From Escherichia phage UGJNEcP1, in the sequence record OV754623: 64,000 nt of DNA; one strand, given 5' to 3'. Both the position numbers and the translations under genes were made by a program. The notes beneath the pieces are model-generated. The model ran no database searches and was not told the DNA's origin. It saw only the letters and a program-made list of their open reading frames with translations. Below, in pieces: positions 41,582 to 55,918 of the stretch (positions are counted from its first letter, which is position 1; the number at the start of each line of letters is the position of its first letter).

Positions 41582-41830
41582 TTATTCTTTTTCGCGAATA
41601 ATAATTACTTGTTGAGGCTGCTGAGCAGATTTCTTTTCGGCAACGATAGACCAAATTAAAGTTCCAATCCAACCAACCATCGTCCAGTTAAAGAGTAAAG
41701 ATACAAAGAAGATTGCTGCTGTGCTTTTTGTGCCACGAATAAGTGCGATTACCCAAGGCAACATGTAAATGATGATTGAACCAATACCTGCGATTAAAAC
41801 TGCTACTGAACTAGCCACGAATAATTCCAT
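41582..41830 (-). CDS. small inner-membrane protein (two TM segments), immunity-like candidate
   Basis: 82 aa, two hydrophobic helices; adjacent to sp; function unverified. Confidence 0.45.
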   Translation of the reverse strand: MELFVASSVAVLIAGIGSIIIYMLPWVIALIRGTKSTAAIFFVSLLFNWTMVGWIGTLIWSIVAEKKSAQQPQQVIIIREKE

Positions 41831-41891: not shown

Positions 41892-42260
41892 TTAATTAAA
41901 TTTGTTTAAACGTTCAATACACTGGACGTAGTTATTCGCGATTTGTTTCTGGGTAGGCTCTTTACCAGTTGTTTCAACATAGCGAATGAATGCGATTTCA
42001 GTAGCCTGTAAGCAATGTTCTTTAACGCGTTGTTCCTTTGACAATGCTACAGTATCAGAGTCACGATAACGTTGAGCATGAGCGTCAGCTTGAATCATTC
42101 GATTACCTACAGTAACCGGGTCTTCCACTTCAACTTTAGGTTGTTCATATTGTTTAACATTCGGATTGTAAATCAGTTGGCCAACGTTATTAGGGATAAA
42201 GCCATGAGCACCACATCCGGTTAATCCGAATACCATTGCTAAAGCGATTAATTTTTTCAT
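41892..42260 (-). CDS. putative lipoprotein
   Basis: 122 aa; signal peptide with lipobox LTGC. Confidence 0.55.
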   Translation of the reverse strand: MKKLIALAMVFGLTGCGAHGFIPNNVGQLIYNPNVKQYEQPKVEVEDPVTVGNRMIQADAHAQRYRDSDTVALSKEQRVKEHCLQATEIAFIRYVETTGKEPTQKQIANNYVQCIERLNKFN

Positions 42261-47165: not shown

Positions 47166-48065
47166 TTATTCCTCGATTACGACATCTTCGTATTTAGGTA
47201 TATTATACGGTGAAGAAATTAAAGCATTAAAGTAGATGAACTCACCAAGACCTGGATGGAATACTTCTTCAGGATTTTCGAAATATTGAATCTTCGGACG
47301 TCCTTTAAGAATTTGATAGTACTCAGTTTTAGTTGGATTAAAAATTCGAATCAGCGCTTCTTCAGGATACTTATTTCTGTCGAAACTATTATTTGGATCA
47401 GTTATATAAAGCGGTTGACCTAATTGAATTGCGCATTCAACCACTTGTTCAAAACGATAGCATGGGTCACTAATTCGAAATGGATGAAAAATACCATCTA
47501 GATGAATAGGAGCCAAATCACCTACAAGACGCTGCATGACGGAAGGACGTATAACTTTCTGCGTTACGATAATCTTATTACCATCTGCACCTGCGTTAAC
47601 CAGCACTTCTTTTTGACGTTCATTCAACATAGTAGTTTGAAGTGAACGATTAACAGACAACATGTCGGTTTTTAAGAATTCATCAATATAAAAACGTGGT
47701 TTATTAGGGTCTGCAGTGATATTGAAATTGAATTCTACATCAAAAGCGCCGTCATATCCAGTGATATCTGTGATTAGAAAATCACAATCATAATAAGCAA
47801 TTAATGAATCAACCACAAATTCATTTTCAGACCAAAAATATTTACGAGTGTTATACGCGTTATCTTTATACCATAATGGAACAAACTTAAATTCTGGGAA
47901 AAGACGTTCACATTCTTTAATATCAGATGCATTACGTGGATATGTAATCACATCACCCGGATTAGCACGGTGCAAATGAAGTTGGAAGTTGCCATCCTTA
48001 AGGATAGCATACTGTCCAGTTTCATAAGACCGCATACTCAAGATAGGTACGCGGAAAATAGCCAT
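47166..48065 (-). CDS. hypothetical protein in the beta-gt slot (candidate transferase)
   Basis: 299 aa; no confident motif; positional replacement of T4 beta-glucosyltransferase; stop/start abutting neighbours. Confidence 0.5.
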   Translation of the reverse strand: MAIFRVPILSMRSYETGQYAILKDGNFQLHLHRANPGDVITYPRNASDIKECERLFPEFKFVPLWYKDNAYNTRKYFWSENEFVVDSLIAYYDCDFLITDITGYDGAFDVEFNFNITADPNKPRFYIDEFLKTDMLSVNRSLQTTMLNERQKEVLVNAGADGNKIIVTQKVIRPSVMQRLVGDLAPIHLDGIFHPFRISDPCYRFEQVVECAIQLGQPLYITDPNNSFDRNKYPEEALIRIFNPTKTEYYQILKGRPKIQYFENPEEVFHPGLGEFIYFNALISSPYNIPKYEDVVIEE

Positions 48066-48781
48066 TAGTCAAGGAATCCTTTAACATAATCAAAATCACG
48101 TTCAAACACATGGGCACTTACCATGGTATGAGTATAATCACCAACTTCTACACCACATTCGTTAGCGATATAATGAAGTAATTTTCCTTGGAGATAAAAA
48201 TCCAACTGCATAACAACAGCACAGTTCTGGGAACGCATATGACAGTGGGTATAAAGCTTACCATCACGAATATAATAAGTCACTGAGTCAGTACATGGAT
48301 ATTCAAGCGTTTCGTCCGAATCAAGCAAAGCCTGATCAGAACTTTCTAGAATTTGGAACACAACTCTTCGGGAGTTAGGCTTCTCTTTAAGTTCTTTTAG
48401 AAGAGCTGGTAATTGAGCCGCAATGCGAGGGCCATAGAAAGTGTTGAAGTTCGCCGGCAAAACATCTGATTTTGGTTTAGAAATAAATTTAGCGACATTA
48501 GGATATGCCTTAAACGCTTCTTCTGCGTTGGTACCACCAGAAATCATAAACTTCCAGAAGTCTTCGGCATATTCATAAGAGATGCGGTTAATACGTGGGT
48601 CGGTCATTTTGAATGATGATGGAGTGTCAACAACCACTGTCATAGACCCAATTTCATTACAACGTCCAATACGAGAATCAGTTACGAATTCCGGGTTTTC
48701 TAAAATTTCACGATTGACTGCTTTAAATGCGGCTTGAAAATCTGCGGCTTTGATATATTTCATTGTGTTATGTTTTCCCAT
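48065..48781 (-). CDS. 42: thymidylate-synthase-fold pyrimidine C5-modifying enzyme, probable dCMP hydroxymethylase gp42
   Basis: 238 aa; YPCTDSVTYYIRDGKLYTHCHMRSQN has the catalytic-Cys and R/S motifs of the TS/dCMP-hydroxymethylase fold; synteny. Confidence 0.65.
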   Translation of the reverse strand: MGKHNTMKYIKAADFQAAFKAVNREILENPEFVTDSRIGRCNEIGSMTVVVDTPSSFKMTDPRINRISYEYAEDFWKFMISGGTNAEEAFKAYPNVAKFISKPKSDVLPANFNTFYGPRIAAQLPALLKELKEKPNSRRVVFQILESSDQALLDSDETLEYPCTDSVTYYIRDGKLYTHCHMRSQNCAVVMQLDFYLQGKLLHYIANECGVEVGDYTHTMVSAHVFERDFDYVKGFLD

Positions 48782-48823: not shown

Positions 48824-49063
48824 TTATTTGAATTTCTTGACAATGTTGATATAACGTAAAGCTTCAGCATCGATACTTCCAAGAACACTATGAAGAAATG
48901 CATCAGCGTAATATTCTAGTTGAACAGGTTCTTTAATCACTTTAGCCGCTTTAGTTTCAAACAGGCCCATCAGGGCCTTTTTAAGAATTTGTTCGTTAGT
49001 GTTCAGTTTAATAGTCAAAATCTCTTCGTTAAGTTGGTGGTTAAAAGTTTTTCTAGAAATCAT
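48824..49063 (-). CDS. hypothetical small protein
   Basis: 79-aa ORF with ATGA-type overlap with the upstream gene. Confidence 0.45.
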   Translation of the reverse strand: MISRKTFNHQLNEEILTIKLNTNEQILKKALMGLFETKAAKVIKEPVQLEYYADAFLHSVLGSIDAEALRYINIVKKFK

Positions 49064-50220
49064 TCCGGGTACCTCAAAGCGTCATCAGAGTTAGTTATAT
49101 CAATAATAGATATAGAGTTTTCTGCTAACCCGTTTTTAGATAATTGACGTTTATAATATCTTTCACAATATGTACACGTCGTCCCGCAGATTTCATTAGC
49201 ACAATCGAAATCTGGATGTCTGAACCACCTTTTTTCTAAAAAGCCATCTAACAAAGAGGTTTCAATATTTACTGTATGTGAAAACTCAGTTTCGTTTTCA
49301 AGAGTGAAAATAGTCTCTAAAGGCTTCCACAGTTCTAACAAATTACCTTCAAACTTTTCAGAAGCGTATGCTTCAAGAACTTTCAAAATGTAGTCTGTGC
49401 TACCTGTACGTCCTGAAACTTTGAATTGAGTGATACCAATATCATTATAAAGTTTCAAATCTTGAGGACGAACAAAACGAGTTCTCAACCAGTTAAATGG
49501 GTCTGTATCACGAGCTTTAATACAGTGCTGCATAGGATATCCGTTTAAGGATTTAGCATCATCGGCTGTAACATCAGTACTATGGAAAATATAGCAAGAG
49601 TCACGATAGCTACAATGTGTTGTATACCCTTTACCAGCATTAGAACAGAACTCATTTACAAGAACTTCAAATATTATATTGTTCTTATTGCAAAACTCTG
49701 CTGCACGCTTCAGGAAAGAAACTGAACGGTTCTTATGAATTCCACAGCAGACCTTTTTGATATTATATTGGTCATGCAAGTATTTGATTTGAGTTACAGC
49801 ATCGACATGTAGAATTGTTGAAACTTCAATCTCAATGTCTTTATTGACTTCACGAACAATTTCCATAACAACAGGGTTAGCGATAGTAATACGCCATACG
49901 CCTATTGACCAAAGATACTGAACATAATCCTGAATAGCTTTCTTCTTCCACTCAACTAGTTCTCTTTTTGAACCAGGATTTATCGTGTTGAGTGTATAGT
50001 TAAAGCAAATACCTAATTCGTTACAACGTTTAACGTAATCTTCTAACATCTTTTTGTCAACGTCAGGAAGCCTAAAATCAGGTCTGGCTGCTACAAAAGC
50101 CATTTCTCTTGTAGAGCCGTATACTTCATTTATCAAGCTATTAGGATAAGTTTTATTGAGCTCTACGATTTTATCAAGAAGAGCTAAATCAAAATTCGTT
50201 CCGATTTTAAAAGTATTCAT
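49060..50220 (-). CDS. U32-family (collagenase-like / Fe-S hydroxylase-like) enzyme candidate
   Basis: 386 aa; NYTLNTIN and VLVNEFCSNAGKGYTTHCSY resemble U32 TIM-barrel motifs (partial match to the E.F..G..C....G.C..S signature); C-terminal C-x4-C-x3-C-x2-C cluster. Confidence 0.45.
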   Translation of the reverse strand: MNTFKIGTNFDLALLDKIVELNKTYPNSLINEVYGSTREMAFVAARPDFRLPDVDKKMLEDYVKRCNELGICFNYTLNTINPGSKRELVEWKKKAIQDYVQYLWSIGVWRITIANPVVMEIVREVNKDIEIEVSTILHVDAVTQIKYLHDQYNIKKVCCGIHKNRSVSFLKRAAEFCNKNNIIFEVLVNEFCSNAGKGYTTHCSYRDSCYIFHSTDVTADDAKSLNGYPMQHCIKARDTDPFNWLRTRFVRPQDLKLYNDIGITQFKVSGRTGSTDYILKVLEAYASEKFEGNLLELWKPLETIFTLENETEFSHTVNIETSLLDGFLEKRWFRHPDFDCANEICGTTCTYCERYYKRQLSKNGLAENSISIIDITNSDDALRYPE

Positions 50221-50274: not shown

Positions 50275-50679
50275 TTATTGTAGATTCGGTTTATATGATT
50301 TAAATGTTTCGAATTCGCCTTTATTCATAAGAGCTTTGAATTCGTCAGGACGCATAGCTTTGTCGTCGATAATCCAATCATATACTGGTTTATGTGTTAG
50401 CAAATTATGGTACTTCAAGCCAATGTTTGCCAAGTTCTGAATCAGACTTGGGAGAATGTCAATTGCTATACGACCAGGACCTACTGACTTCATACCGCGA
50501 GCAGTGTAAAGCGTTATGGTATGCCCTGCATCATACAGGGCATTAATGGCAGACACCATTTCGACGTCTGGTTTGAAGTTCACGTAATCACGATTGTTAT
50601 TCCACTCTGTTATACAATCATCGACATCAAAACAAAGATTAAGCATGTTTTCTACACGGTGCATTAGATTCGTTCCCAT
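50275..50679 (-). CDS. HAD-superfamily phosphatase-like protein
   Basis: 134 aa; LCFDVDDCIT (DxD motif I), TLYTARG (motif II), IIDDK (motif IV). Confidence 0.55.
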   Translation of the reverse strand: MGTNLMHRVENMLNLCFDVDDCITEWNNNRDYVNFKPDVEMVSAINALYDAGHTITLYTARGMKSVGPGRIAIDILPSLIQNLANIGLKYHNLLTHKPVYDWIIDDKAMRPDEFKALMNKGEFETFKSYKPNLQ

Positions 50680-52349
50680 TGATGAGTGATATCGCCACCG
50701 ATTGGACGATAAGAAACACCAGTTTCTTTATCAGTTAGTACCCATTTACCAGGATTTTTTGTAATCAGAGTAGCCGTTACAGGCTCTGCTACGTCATAAC
50801 TAATAGAGCCGTCTTGAAGTACACGGCCCATGTTACGTAATTGCTTAGTCAGAAGTTCCATACCTTTATAATATGCGGCTACCGCTTTAAGTGGATTATT
50901 CTTGAAATAACCACCTAATGCAATCCAGATAATTGCCACCGCCAAATGATGATACTCGTTAAACGAACTCATCTTTCCATATTTGTAAATTAATGGATTG
51001 ATGTTAATAGTCACATTACAAGTTGTTTCATCAATAGTAAACTGTCCCCAGGTCGGATTAGCATTGAATTCATCATAACCTGAAACAGCATAAAGCACTT
51101 TAGCTTCATCGTACAATTTTGGCCCGTAAATCTTGGTTTCGCCAAAATATCCACGAGGGTCGATAAACTTGACTTCGCCGTTATCAGTAATCATAGTATT
51201 ACTGAAGTTCGGGTCACCGTGAATAACAGAGTACTGTCCCTGAGAACGGTTATGATAACGAATAAGGTGTTCTAAAGCTTGTTTCAGCATTGGCTTCAGA
51301 CGTCCAATCTTAGTGTAGTTCACGTGTGTGATTTTACCAAATGAATCAATCAATGGTTGAATGCTTTCACAACGATCAATAACTTTCGTATAGAATTCTT
51401 TAGTGAAATCACGACGAACAGTTTCAGGACTTACAAAATAAGTGTCTGTGCTGAATTTCAGTGCATCTAAAATTGCATCAACAATTTGTGGACGAGCAAG
51501 ACTTGATTTGGATTTAATATATTCAAATGCCGGCTTACCTTTAATGCGTTCCATTTCAAAGTTATTTTCATTAACAGAAACTAACTGAGGAACTGAATCT
51601 GATTTCACTTTAAGATACCATGAAATCTCATCTTTCTGAAGAGCTCGGCCCTGTTCGGTTAATGCGAATTTAGTTACAGTTTCTTCACCAATTTCAACTG
51701 CATTAAAACTACGATTAAGTTCACGAACTTCATGAGCCTTTTCAAGTTTAGGCATATCACCTAAATCAATTAGATTCATAAGCTCTGATTTATTGAATGC
51801 ACTCCCGTAAAGGAATTCTACAAAATCACGTCCTTTGCAATATTCGTGAATTTCCTCATCAGTAGAACCCATGTAGAATTCCCAGTCTTTGAACTGATAA
51901 ATTCCTACAACATTACCACCTGTTGAACCTACGTTAGTGATATTTTCACCGTCGAAATTATATCGACATTCGTCACCCTTAACATAGATTGCGTTAACAT
52001 TCCAAGACCATGAACCAAAATCAGGAATAATATCACACCAGTTAACAATTACGTTATGGCCGTCTAAATCTTTGTGTAATTTAGCAAGAGCATAAGCAGA
52101 ACCATACGCTTCATCAACTGTACGAATAGTCACATTGAACCCTTCTTGCTCACAATAAGCTCGAACAGTTTCAGCAAATTTTGAATGAACTACTACAATA
52201 ATTTCATCTGCGCCAAGGTCAGAATAAATTGTATACAAATTGCTCAGAATAGTGTCTTGTTTATAGTTAACAAGCACCTTAGGAATATGATGCGTTATTG
52301 GATACAAACGAGTTGCCAGTCCAGCACCAAGAATAACAGCTTTTTTCAT
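50664..52349 (-). CDS. bifunctional sugar-1-phosphate nucleotidyltransferase / APH-like sugar kinase
   Basis: 561 aa; N-terminal MKKAVILGAGLATRLYPITHHIPKVLV (nucleotidyltransferase G-loop); C-terminal VIHGDPNFSNTMI...FIDPRGYFGE (HGD...N and ID motifs of the aminoglycoside/choline-kinase fold). Confidence 0.75.
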   Translation of the reverse strand: MKKAVILGAGLATRLYPITHHIPKVLVNYKQDTILSNLYTIYSDLGADEIIVVVHSKFAETVRAYCEQEGFNVTIRTVDEAYGSAYALAKLHKDLDGHNVIVNWCDIIPDFGSWSWNVNAIYVKGDECRYNFDGENITNVGSTGGNVVGIYQFKDWEFYMGSTDEEIHEYCKGRDFVEFLYGSAFNKSELMNLIDLGDMPKLEKAHEVRELNRSFNAVEIGEETVTKFALTEQGRALQKDEISWYLKVKSDSVPQLVSVNENNFEMERIKGKPAFEYIKSKSSLARPQIVDAILDALKFSTDTYFVSPETVRRDFTKEFYTKVIDRCESIQPLIDSFGKITHVNYTKIGRLKPMLKQALEHLIRYHNRSQGQYSVIHGDPNFSNTMITDNGEVKFIDPRGYFGETKIYGPKLYDEAKVLYAVSGYDEFNANPTWGQFTIDETTCNVTININPLIYKYGKMSSFNEYHHLAVAIIWIALGGYFKNNPLKAVAAYYKGMELLTKQLRNMGRVLQDGSISYDVAEPVTATLITKNPGKWVLTDKETGVSYRPIGGDITHQWERI

Positions 52350-52390: not shown

Positions 52391-52534
52391 CTAGTTAAAG
52401 CATTCATACTTTGCTTGTAGTCCAATCATAATCCATCCGATTATAAGAGTCGGAATCATTACCGGAGCCGTTAAGCTCCAGTAGATAGTCATGACAAGCA
52501 TCAATAGTAAAAGTCCTATTGTTATTGCTTTCAT
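52391..52534 (-). CDS. small hydrophobic peptide
   Basis: 47-aa ORF MKAITIGLLLLMLVMTIYWSL...; ATGA overlap with the SIS gene stop; below track cutoff. Confidence 0.3.
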   Translation of the reverse strand: MKAITIGLLLLMLVMTIYWSLTAPVMIPTLIIGWIMIGLQAKYECFN

Positions 52535-53166
52535 TGTTCGCCTCGTAACATGGCACCTAGTGCACCGCCTGGATGGAACTTAAGGAAGTCATTAGAGGTA
52601 AATCCACGTTCAGACGAAAGGTTGATAGCAAACGTATCGATAAGCGCTAACAACAATGTAGTGGACATAGTCGGAGCCAGAGAATTCTCATCAACCTCTA
52701 CCGCGATGCCTGTACAGAAAGAGTAATCAAAAAGGGCTTCATTTTCTTGCGGAATGTCTGGGTTACAATGCAACAGAATCTGTTTGACGTTCGGTCGAAT
52801 CATTTTAAGATGCTTAGCCACGCCTATCATTTCTTCAGTTTTACCAGAACGACTAATATGAATCAACACATCATTAGGCGCAATGAATCCTGCGTCACCG
52901 TGAGAATAATGTCCAGTGTTCAAGTACATACTCGGGATACCGAGTGAAGCAAATGTCTCAGAAGCTTTAGTTGCAATATTAGCATTCTTACCAACACCTG
53001 TAATAATTACTCGGCTTTCATAATTACTAAGTCCAGGGCGTCGAAGAGTTTCTAGAATAGCATTATAACGAGCAGGGTTTTGACTAATTACTTTGGCCAT
53101 AGCGGCCAAAGAAGAAGCTTGTTTTATGATTGCGTCAATAGCGATAGTAATAGGAGTAGTTTTCAT
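52531..53166 (-). CDS. SIS-domain sugar-phosphate isomerase (arabinose-5-phosphate isomerase / GmhA-like)
   Basis: 211 aa; ITGVGKNANIA and HISRSGKTEE are canonical SIS phosphosugar-binding motifs; no CBS domains. Confidence 0.75.
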   Translation of the reverse strand: MKTTPITIAIDAIIKQASSLAAMAKVISQNPARYNAILETLRRPGLSNYESRVIITGVGKNANIATKASETFASLGIPSMYLNTGHYSHGDAGFIAPNDVLIHISRSGKTEEMIGVAKHLKMIRPNVKQILLHCNPDIPQENEALFDYSFCTGIAVEVDENSLAPTMSTTLLLALIDTFAINLSSERGFTSNDFLKFHPGGALGAMLRGEQ

Positions 53167-53206: not shown

Positions 53207-55918
53207 TCAAAAATCGAACATATCGAACAGAGATGCTTTCTTCTCGTAATCGAGTTTCGCTGCTGATGTGAATCCTTCAAGTGGTTTAATAAATGTCTTC
53301 TCAAGGAGAACAGTGTAGTCCATCCAATGAAGTACGTCGTCTTTAATTAAATCTGTGATTTCCGTACCAGAAGGCCATGCGATACATTTATCACCGAATG
53401 GGTTTCCATCACGTAAAGGCAGAACGTATACCTTTTCGCCTTCTACAACTTGTGGAGCATCAATATTACCTTTGATAGCTCGGTTATATGTCAGAATTCC
53501 ACGAATATGGAACGGGCATTTAGGTCCTGGATATCCACCTACATCATATTTAGCAATGTTATTCGCAGAAGATACCGACGCGATGCTAATATAATTCAAT
53601 TGACGGAATTCTTTTTCAAACTCTTTAAAATATTCTTGTAATGATTCTTCACCTTCTTGAAGCATACGACGAATACATTCTTTAAGAGCTTTCTGTACTG
53701 CTTTAGGAGTCGAAGATTTCTGAGTCTCTAGACCCATGATTTTGAGTTTAGGCTCAGCGTAACGAGTACCTTCCATATCCCACACGTTTAATGCATAACG
53801 TTTCTTACCAGTCCAGAATCCACCAATACCTTTAGAACCGAGCGGAGGTCCAGCGATAGCTTCTCGGTCCATGAACATTAAGTGTTGTTTATTGTTCATG
53901 TATTCACACATTTCACGGAAACCTTTATCAATAGCTGGTTCCATACGTTCACGTGCAAACTTATCTAAGAAGTCTACCCAATGGTTGGTATCACGGAATT
54001 TAGATTCACCAACCTTATCGATAATTTTATCAGCAGATACGTAAATAGAGTCTGTATCACCATAAAGAACGAAAGCTTCACCTTCTGTGCCACAAACTTC
54101 ATTCAGATATTCATTAACTTTACGTTCAATCCACTGTAAAGCCATTTGACCAAATGTTGTGATTGCAGTTGCATTACGCAAATCGTAATAACGGAACCAA
54201 ACGTTGCCAAGTGCACCATAAAGCGAGTTGATGAGCAATTTACGGTTAATCTGTGCAGTCATACCTGCAACTTCAGTACGTTGAGCTCTAAACAACATTT
54301 CATTAAGAGATTTAGCAGACAACTTTTTAATCTTTTCTTTAATCTCATCGCTGAAGTCGAAACGATAATCAACATCTAATGGTTCGTCAACAGAAAGATT
54401 AGGATTATGCAATGCCTCTTTAATTATTTCACCATTACGTTGAGCTGCAAGCATGTAACCTTTATGTTCTTTACGTTGATTAAAGACCTTAGTTATTTCA
54501 GTTGGAACTACACCATCACGGTCTTTATAATACATCATGCCGTTAGGAGAACAACTGTACACATCTGAAGGACGTTCAGCGATTGCGTTAATATAATCAT
54601 GCAATGGAGCTACTTTAAACGTTCCTGCTATTGTTTCCGGGCTAATATTCACTTGGCGAATAATACTTGGATACAGAGATGTAAGGTCGAAACTCATTAC
54701 ATATTTGTATCGATTTGGAATAGGTTCCTTAACAAAAGCACCCGGGTAAGGTTGAACTGGATGCGAACGACCTTGTGGAATCACCTTGTTTTGTTCTTTA
54801 AGGCTATTAAAAATAATAGCGTCCCAAGTTTTAATTGGACTGAACACAGATTGAATCTGAATTTTAGCATAATAACCCATGTCCAAACTCAAGTTGATGA
54901 ACTGACGCTTAGCATCAATTTGCAATACACGATACACGTCGATAATGTTATAAGAAATATATCGTTGGTGATTGCTTTCACGAAGCTTAGAAATAGGGCC
55001 GTCATATTTCAGTTTACCAACGTTCAATTCAAATTCTGAAATGTAATCCAGAGAATACGACGGTTGATTAGTAAAAGAGAATTTTTTGTAAAGGTCGATG
55101 TAATCAAGAACAGAGATACCGAACAATGTAATGATTTCACGAGAACCATACATGTTTTCGATAACTTTAACACGAGTTTTACGATGTGGTGATAAACGTT
55201 TCGCAGTAGATTCGCCAAAAATATTCTTGATTCGGTTATACACATATGGAATATCAAATGACTCAACGTTCCATCCGGTTAAAATGACAGGAGTTTTCTG
55301 TTGCCAGAAGTTGAGATATTCCATCAACAATTCTTTTTCGTTATCGAACGGCATATAAACGATTTTATCGATAATTTCAGATGGAACCTCATCACCACCT
55401 TGTTCTTGAAGCTTAGCAGCGATTTCAATAGACCATTCTTCTACATTACCGTATGGAGAATTCAATAGATCAAATACGTAGAACCTGTCGTCAATTGAGT
55501 CATAATGGGTGATAGCATCAATCGGATGTTTTGCTTGTGACGGCTCAGGGAACCCGTCCGGAGATGTTACTTCGATGTCGAAGTTAGCCACACGAATTTT
55601 TGTATGGTCGTATTTGATTTCATAGTTATAAGTGTCAGACAAATACGCCAATTTGAAATCGTCCATGCCAAGTGCTTCAAGTCCGATATCTTCCATGCGT
55701 TTAATCCATTGGGAGGCATCACGCATATTAGCGAACAACTTACGAGTACACGGCTTACCGTAGATATCGAAATATTTCGTAGCCTGACTTTCCGGACAAT
55801 GAGCAAACAGTGATGGTTTATATTCTACTTCACGAGTACGTTCACGGCCATTAGAATCGATGTAACGTTCAAAAATTGAATCACCAATCTGTTCAACCGT
55901 TAAGTAAAATTCTTTCAT
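53207..55918 (-). CDS. 43: DNA polymerase gp43 (family B)
   Basis: 903 aa; N-terminus MKEFYLTVEQIGDSIFERYIDSNGRERTRE matches RB69 gp43 as recalled; exonuclease FDIE and polymerase YGDTDS motifs. Confidence 0.97.
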   Translation of the reverse strand: MKEFYLTVEQIGDSIFERYIDSNGRERTREVEYKPSLFAHCPESQATKYFDIYGKPCTRKLFANMRDASQWIKRMEDIGLEALGMDDFKLAYLSDTYNYEIKYDHTKIRVANFDIEVTSPDGFPEPSQAKHPIDAITHYDSIDDRFYVFDLLNSPYGNVEEWSIEIAAKLQEQGGDEVPSEIIDKIVYMPFDNEKELLMEYLNFWQQKTPVILTGWNVESFDIPYVYNRIKNIFGESTAKRLSPHRKTRVKVIENMYGSREIITLFGISVLDYIDLYKKFSFTNQPSYSLDYISEFELNVGKLKYDGPISKLRESNHQRYISYNIIDVYRVLQIDAKRQFINLSLDMGYYAKIQIQSVFSPIKTWDAIIFNSLKEQNKVIPQGRSHPVQPYPGAFVKEPIPNRYKYVMSFDLTSLYPSIIRQVNISPETIAGTFKVAPLHDYINAIAERPSDVYSCSPNGMMYYKDRDGVVPTEITKVFNQRKEHKGYMLAAQRNGEIIKEALHNPNLSVDEPLDVDYRFDFSDEIKEKIKKLSAKSLNEMLFRAQRTEVAGMTAQINRKLLINSLYGALGNVWFRYYDLRNATAITTFGQMALQWIERKVNEYLNEVCGTEGEAFVLYGDTDSIYVSADKIIDKVGESKFRDTNHWVDFLDKFARERMEPAIDKGFREMCEYMNNKQHLMFMDREAIAGPPLGSKGIGGFWTGKKRYALNVWDMEGTRYAEPKLKIMGLETQKSSTPKAVQKALKECIRRMLQEGEESLQEYFKEFEKEFRQLNYISIASVSSANNIAKYDVGGYPGPKCPFHIRGILTYNRAIKGNIDAPQVVEGEKVYVLPLRDGNPFGDKCIAWPSGTEITDLIKDDVLHWMDYTVLLEKTFIKPLEGFTSAAKLDYEKKASLFDMFDF

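Follow-up and report, generated by a model that had tools for sequence, protein, structure and literature searches.

A stretch of 64,000 nucleotides from Escherichia phage UGJNEcP1 (sequence record OV754623; hereafter the window) contains, directly downstream of the DNA polymerase gene, an open reading frame (ORF) for a protein of 211 amino acids. This protein is very probably (roughly 0.88) a D-arabinose-5-phosphate (A5P) isomerase (EC 5.3.1.13) that consists of a single SIS domain without CBS domains and would stand at the head of a pathway leading from D-ribulose-5-phosphate (Ru5P) through uridine diphosphate (UDP)-arabinose to the phage DNA. The assignment is based on the fold, the subfamily, the catalytic residues, the gene context, and the identity of the protein to gp55 of phage RB69, from which we infer isomerase activity. 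The gene and its upstream neighbour are located as follows.

52531..53166, minus strand: SIS-domain isomerase gene with an ATG start, 211 amino acids, single SIS domain

53207..55918, minus strand: DNA polymerase gp43, 903 amino acids, upstream neighbour of the SIS gene

The first-pass annotation, made from the sequence alone, had described a stand-alone SIS protein immediately after the DNA polymerase gene, and this description holds: the isomerase gene lies downstream of gp43 across a gap of 40 nucleotides, and the Pfam SIS model (PF01380) matches residues 51-181 with 41.9 bits (E 1e-10), the cut-off (gathering score) being 25 bits. The two motifs on which that description relied are both found in the translated product of 52531..53166, which reads ITGVGKNANIATK at residues 55-67 (GVGKNANIA at residues 57-65) and ISRSGKTEEM at residues 104-113 (SRSGKTEE at residues 105-112). 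It had also been stated that the CBS domains of KdsD are missing, in agreement with the C-terminus of the protein, which is located 13 residues past the HPGGALG motif, and with the NCBIfam models, of which only the SIS halves were matched (positions 2-153 of 268). In an alignment of the two proteins, Escherichia coli KdsD continues for about 125 more residues (the CBS domains) beyond HPGGALG. A scan for sigma-70 promoters around the gene gave 4 matches, as against 3.7 expected from shuffled sequence, and a terminator scan of the same surroundings found none.

With regard to the subfamily, the best-scoring SIS subfamily in NCBIfam is that of the A5P isomerases, with 112.9 bits for kpsF, 107.7 for KdsD, and 80.8 for GutQ, and the other SIS subfamilies (HexR, AlsR, AgaS, MurR, and 6-phospho-3-hexuloisomerase) reach at most 27.5 bits. 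A phmmer search against PDB sequences returned 3etn from B. fragilis (E 2.6e-25), 5uqi, the c3406 protein of E. coli CFT073 (E 4.1e-23), and 2xhz, the SIS domain of E. coli KdsD (E 3.5e-19). The KdsD residues K59, H88, E111, E152, and H193 are aligned to K60, H89, E112, E157, and H198 of the phage protein; the KdsD sequence used here agrees with the alignment of the 2xhz chain. All five residues are invariant across 38 phage homologs, whose identity ranges down to 41%.

The same data bear on the idea that the protein is a non-catalytic sensor or regulator that binds sugar phosphates through an SIS domain of the RpiR/MurR/HexR type, which we consider very improbable. There are weak NCBIfam matches to the SIS domains of HexR, AlsR, and MurR, and the structure search with Foldseek (below) also retrieved RccR, NanR, and MurR at E ~1e-7; however, all of these fall far short of the matches to isomerases, the catalytic Lys, His, and Glu are invariant, and the 211 residues comprise one SIS domain and N-terminal helices, with no helix-turn-helix or other effector domain.

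An AlphaFold2 model built from the homolog alignment (predicted local distance difference test score, pLDDT, 95.3; predicted template modelling score, pTM, 0.91) shows the SIS domain with its flavodoxin-like alpha/beta fold and was compared with PDB structures by Foldseek. The top nine matches were chains of 2xhz, 5uqi, and 3etn, followed by 3fxa, with E ~1e-13 to 4e-11 and template modelling (TM) scores of 0.71-0.79. The first of them was 2xhz (TM 0.75/0.91; root-mean-square deviation 1.9 Å), and after three chains of this entry, 5uqi and 3etn occupied ranks 4 to 6 (E 4e-13, TM 0.76-0.79). Structures of the phosphoheptose (sedoheptulose-7-phosphate) isomerase GmhA (5lu5-5lu7) were matched only at E ~1e-6 and TM 0.55, and no GmhA family model occurs among the NCBIfam matches of the 211-residue protein. 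A structure prediction set against KdsD and GmhA, which had been named in the first-pass annotation as a check, is therefore answered in favor of KdsD, with 2xhz the best match and GmhA far behind. On the NCBIfam and Foldseek scores, a GmhA-like protein and a regulator were both rejected.

Several points weigh against the assignment. The NCBIfam scores remain below the curated full-length cut-offs (112.9 versus 203.7 bits for kpsF), which is attributed to the missing CBS half of the protein. The Listeria protein Lmof2365_0531 (3fxa) is likewise SIS-only and has been reported to be a glucose-6-phosphate isomerase; SIS-only look-alikes can therefore differ in substrate. Moreover, the complete genome of phage JS10 carries the modification module without an SIS gene, and the phage isomerase is hence not indispensable to the pathway.

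It is improbable, but less so than a regulatory function, that the protein is an SIS isomerase for some other sugar phosphate (glucose 6-phosphate or fructose 6-phosphate, a heptose phosphate as in GmhA, or 3-hexulose 6-phosphate) and that A5P comes wholly from the host enzymes KdsD and GutQ. The sequence gives no certain substrate, the JS10 module manages without a phage SIS gene, and 3fxa, which has been reported to be a glucose-6-phosphate isomerase, is among both the Foldseek and the phmmer matches. These points are opposed by the distant GmhA matches given above, by a score of only 16 bits for the 6-phospho-3-hexuloisomerase model, by the invariance of all five KdsD-type catalytic residues, and by the location of the gene, which adjoins A5P-consuming enzymes in a system whose DNA sugar is D-arabinose. 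An A5P isomerase thus remains the preferred reading of the 211-residue protein.

The protein is identical in 211 of 211 residues to gp55 of RB69 (RB69p055, RB69ORF055c, NP_861745.1). The two genes differ at 7 nucleotides, and since all of these differences are in third positions and synonymous, the gene is under purifying selection. By megablast, the window, which belongs to a Mosigvirus, shows 98.2% identity to RB69 over the compared region and 100% identity to Escherichia phage UGJNEcP2 (OV877511.1). The identity of the gene and its proposed role are already known from GenBank, from PHROGs, and from papers of 2018, 2021, and 2026. The UGJNEcP2 record labels the gene 'Arabinose 5-phosphate isomerase KpsF', the RefSeq label of RB69p055 is 'arabinose 5-phosphate isomerase', and phrog_5670, which bears the same name, matches the 211-residue protein with E 4e-116. 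Thomas et al. (2018) put forward ORF055c and ORF53_52c as candidate genes of UDP-arabinose synthesis (PMC6024577), a comparative paper of 2021 gave RB69p055 the same role, and it was proposed by Lee et al. that gp55 diverts Ru5P to arabinofuranose 5-phosphate (PMC13326640, section 27). In the accessible literature, where the published isomerase role is based on homology and structure prediction, we found no phage ortholog whose enzyme activity had been assayed, and essentiality data on these genes were not found in a transposon-mutagenesis preprint with Bas46 and LC53.

Further downstream of the isomerase gene, the window contains a module of genes for DNA hypermodification.

50664..52349, minus strand: sugar-1-phosphate nucleotidyltransferase (N-terminal) and APH-like kinase (C-terminal) in one bifunctional protein of 561 amino acids, with NTP_transferase and weak kinase matches

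50275..50679, minus strand: HAD-like phosphatase, 134 amino acids, matching the TIGR01689 capsule biosynthesis phosphatase (E 4.4e-13); AfhF analog

49060..50220, minus strand: peptidase-U32-family protein, 386 amino acids, RB69 gp50 ortholog; PF01136 at 42.2 bits (cut-off 22.4)

48824..49063, minus strand: ORF of 79 amino acids, RB69 gp49 ortholog, PHROG 8601

48065..48781, minus strand: 5-hydroxydeoxycytidine monophosphate (5-hydroxy-dCMP) synthase, a thymidylate-synthase homolog of 238 amino acids with 98.7% identity to RB69 gp48

47166..48065, minus strand: putative DNA arabinosyltransferase 1, 299 amino acids, PHROG 3891 (PMC13326640, Table 1)

The module genes downstream of the isomerase are 94-99.5% identical to their RB69 counterparts. 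The 561-residue protein is the ortholog of RB69 gp52:53 (99.4-99.5% identity to RB69p053 and RB69p052) and the analog of AfhE from phage HY126, and the 134-residue phosphatase is the ortholog of RB69 gp51 (99.2% identity to RB69p051). The name 'phosphoheptose isomerase', under which this phosphatase widely appears in GenBank and in PHROG 1238, is a mislabel; among curated families, the protein matches TIGR01689 best. The thymidylate-synthase homolog carries MRSQN (D169N in ThyA numbering), as against MRSND in T4 gp42, and MRSQN is the diagnostic signature of 5-hydroxy-dCMP synthase (PMC13326640). In the putative arabinosyltransferase, residues 1-181 match RB69p047 and residues 184-299 match RB69p046. 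The RB69 pairs 46/47 and 52/53 are thus each represented by one intact ORF (299 and 561 amino acids, respectively), in line with the published interpretation of the RB69 splits as sequencing errors. The order of SIS, kinase/nucleotidyltransferase, HAD, thymidylate-synthase-like, and glycosyltransferase genes is also kept in Acinetobacter Twarogvirinae (e.g., phage Apostate), and in Sphingomonas phage PAU the SIS, HAD, and kinase/nucleotidyltransferase genes are clustered.

It was shown by Lee et al. that RB69 DNA contains mono- and di-D-arabinofuranosyl-5-hydroxycytosine and, experimentally, that gp48 of RB69 makes 5-hydroxy-dCMP with flavin and O2 (PMC13326640). The base that bears the sugar is accordingly arabosylated 5-hydroxycytosine and not hydroxymethylcytosine (PMC13326640). 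Arabinosylated 5-hydroxycytosine was also shown in the virion DNA of Mosigvirus NP, with a mono-to-di arabinose ratio of 1:4 (PMC13390438). In HY126, the gp52:53 analog AfhE has been shown to act both as the 1-kinase of A5P and as the pyrophosphorylase that yields UDP-arabinose, and the gp51 analog AfhF to convert arabinose 1,5-bisphosphate to arabinose 1-phosphate by removal of the 5-phosphate (PMC13326640, section 27).

During infection, the isomerase would convert Ru5P from the host pentose phosphate pathway to A5P, which would then be phosphorylated at C1 by the 561-residue kinase/nucleotidyltransferase. The 134-residue HAD phosphatase would take off the 5-phosphate, and the nucleotidyltransferase domain of the 561-residue protein would make UDP-D-arabinofuranose. 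DNA arabinosyltransferases would finally attach arabinose to 5-hydroxycytosine, with one or two residues per cytosine, and the thymidylate-synthase homolog at 48065..48781 would be the source of the 5-hydroxycytosine, in the form of 5-hydroxy-dCMP. Arabinosyl-5-hydroxycytosine protects the DNA of T4-like phages against restriction enzymes and CRISPR, and the gene considered here would supply the sugar precursor; it is therefore of relevance to phage therapy and to studies of anti-phage defence.

The distribution of the genes indicates that this pathway can do without the phage isomerase. The kinase/nucleotidyltransferase occurs in 373 phage records and the SIS protein in 275; among Klebsiella phage records, the former is found in 25, and the latter is possible in at most 3. 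In JS10 (Dhakavirus, NC_012741.1), homologs of the kinase/nucleotidyltransferase (42% identity), the HAD phosphatase (61%), the glycosyltransferase (68%), and T4 gene 42.1 (55%) are present, together with a thymidylate-synthase-like protein of 80% identity in which MRSQN is kept. No SIS gene was found in the whole JS10 genome, either by tblastn (best E 3.3) or with a profile hidden Markov model of the family, which gave nothing at E <=10 among six-frame fragments. Likewise, the locus between genes 43 and uvsX of Klebsiella phage Biddle_MM4 contains no SIS gene, its order being 43, kinase/nucleotidyltransferase, HAD, TMK, U32, thymidylate-synthase-like, and glycosyltransferase.

E. coli makes A5P by its own KdsD and GutQ, and these host enzymes can probably supply A5P to SIS-less relatives such as JS10. 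Because the host has KdsD and GutQ and the modules of relatives lack an SIS gene, the phage enzyme appears to be an auxiliary gene for A5P supply. The genome is estimated to contain about 63,000 cytosines, and the enzyme would act as an auxiliary metabolic gene, or flux booster, that lifts A5P supply to the demand of the phage. With somewhat less than even confidence, we suggest further that the phage isomerase is dispensable for arabinosylated DNA, that it is a CBS-less and possibly feedback-insensitive booster, and that its patchy presence tracks limitation of A5P in the host. If this were true, the limit could come from competition with the synthesis of 3-deoxy-D-manno-octulosonate (Kdo) and lipopolysaccharide, or from inhibition of the host enzymes by cytidine monophosphate (CMP)-Kdo. 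Of the earlier proposal that the protein is the entry step from a host pentose phosphate to the modification sugar, the part that can be retained is an A5P isomerase feeding that sugar; as an obligatory step it is contradicted by the JS10 module.

The isomerase gene is followed by a small ORF that had been pointed out as hydrophobic and translationally coupled to the SIS stop codon. Both features were seen: the TGA stop of the SIS gene shares bases with the ATG of the small ORF (ATGA; tcat on the plus strand at 52531-52534), and the encoded peptide is strongly hydrophobic, with a grand average of hydropathy (GRAVY) of 1.37. This ORF and two genes relevant to its history are as follows.

52391..52534, minus strand: hydrophobic ORF of 47 amino acids, PHROG 3610, T4 gene 42.1 homolog, with a start that overlaps the SIS stop

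41585..41830, minus strand: imm homolog, about 10 kb from the 47-residue ORF in the window

41901..42254, minus strand: imm.1 homolog, about 10 kb from the 47-residue ORF in the window

The peptide is 54% identical to T4 gp42.1 and 60% identical to SP18 gp046, and tblastn gave matches in 577 phage records, among them T4, T2, RB32, JS98, and SP18, all five of which carry the 42.1 homolog without an SIS gene. In T4 and SP18 it is located downstream of imm and has the same ATGA overlap with the imm stop codon. It thus appears that coupling of the 42.1 homolog by ATGA to whatever gene lies upstream is conserved and that the partnership with the SIS gene is not. A functional pair of SIS protein and 47-residue membrane peptide, for example a membrane-tethered isomerase, would fit the ATGA overlap and the conservation of both ORFs across Mosigviruses; however, most of the 577 records with the 47-residue ORF have no SIS gene, coupling is to imm in T4 and SP18, and the Acinetobacter phages and PAU have the SIS gene without the small ORF, which makes such a pair highly unlikely. 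As a pathway-specific partner of the isomerase, the peptide was rejected, since it is the product of a T-even-wide gene, 42.1, whose partner by ATGA overlap in T4 and SP18 is imm.

Another member of the module, the U32-family protein (RB69 gp50), contains a cysteine cluster (C192, C203, C209, and C233) and a C-terminal CX3CX2C motif and has a weak NCBIfam match to UbiU. It is 89% identical to a homolog in a Klebsiella phage whose kinase/nucleotidyltransferase is only 43% identical. Its gene was not found in the whole JS10 genome, and a phmmer search of the protein against PDB sequences gave nothing at E <=1. Several U32 members are known to take part in hydroxylation: RlhA is required for 5-hydroxycytidine in 23S rRNA (PMC5727448), TrhP acts in 5-hydroxyuridine (ho5U) modification of tRNA (PMC6599085), and UbiU/UbiV are O2-independent hydroxylases, with prephenate as the oxygen donor (PMC6747719, PMC10990095). 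As the phage 5-hydroxy-dCMP synthase demands O2, the U32 protein could, hypothetically and by analogy with these enzymes, provide an alternative, anaerobic route to 5-hydroxycytosine.

Compared with known systems, the phage protein is closest to RB69 gp55, DLP3 gp83, and PHROG 5670, with which it shares the place downstream of gene 43, the neighbours, and the proposed role; at the protein level, there is no difference between RB69 and the window. With E. coli KdsD, GutQ, and KpsF (TIGR00393), it has the SIS catalytic domain in common (the aligned part is 35% identical to KdsD), whereas the C-terminal tandem CBS domains of these enzymes are absent from it. The c3406 protein (5uqi, determined with A5P) and the B. 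fragilis protein (3etn), both of which we take to be active isomerases, are also SIS-only proteins of about 200 residues, and a stand-alone SIS isomerase is therefore a known architecture. The GxGK, HGD, SxSGxTxE, and HPGG motifs are common to all three proteins. However, the phage protein is only about 30% identical to 5uqi and 3etn and differs from them in about 45 N-terminal residues that form two long helices in the AlphaFold2 model; in addition, it would serve DNA hypermodification, whereas the c3406 and B. fragilis type belongs to Kdo or capsule synthesis. GmhA shares the SIS fold with the phage protein, as a distant structural match only.
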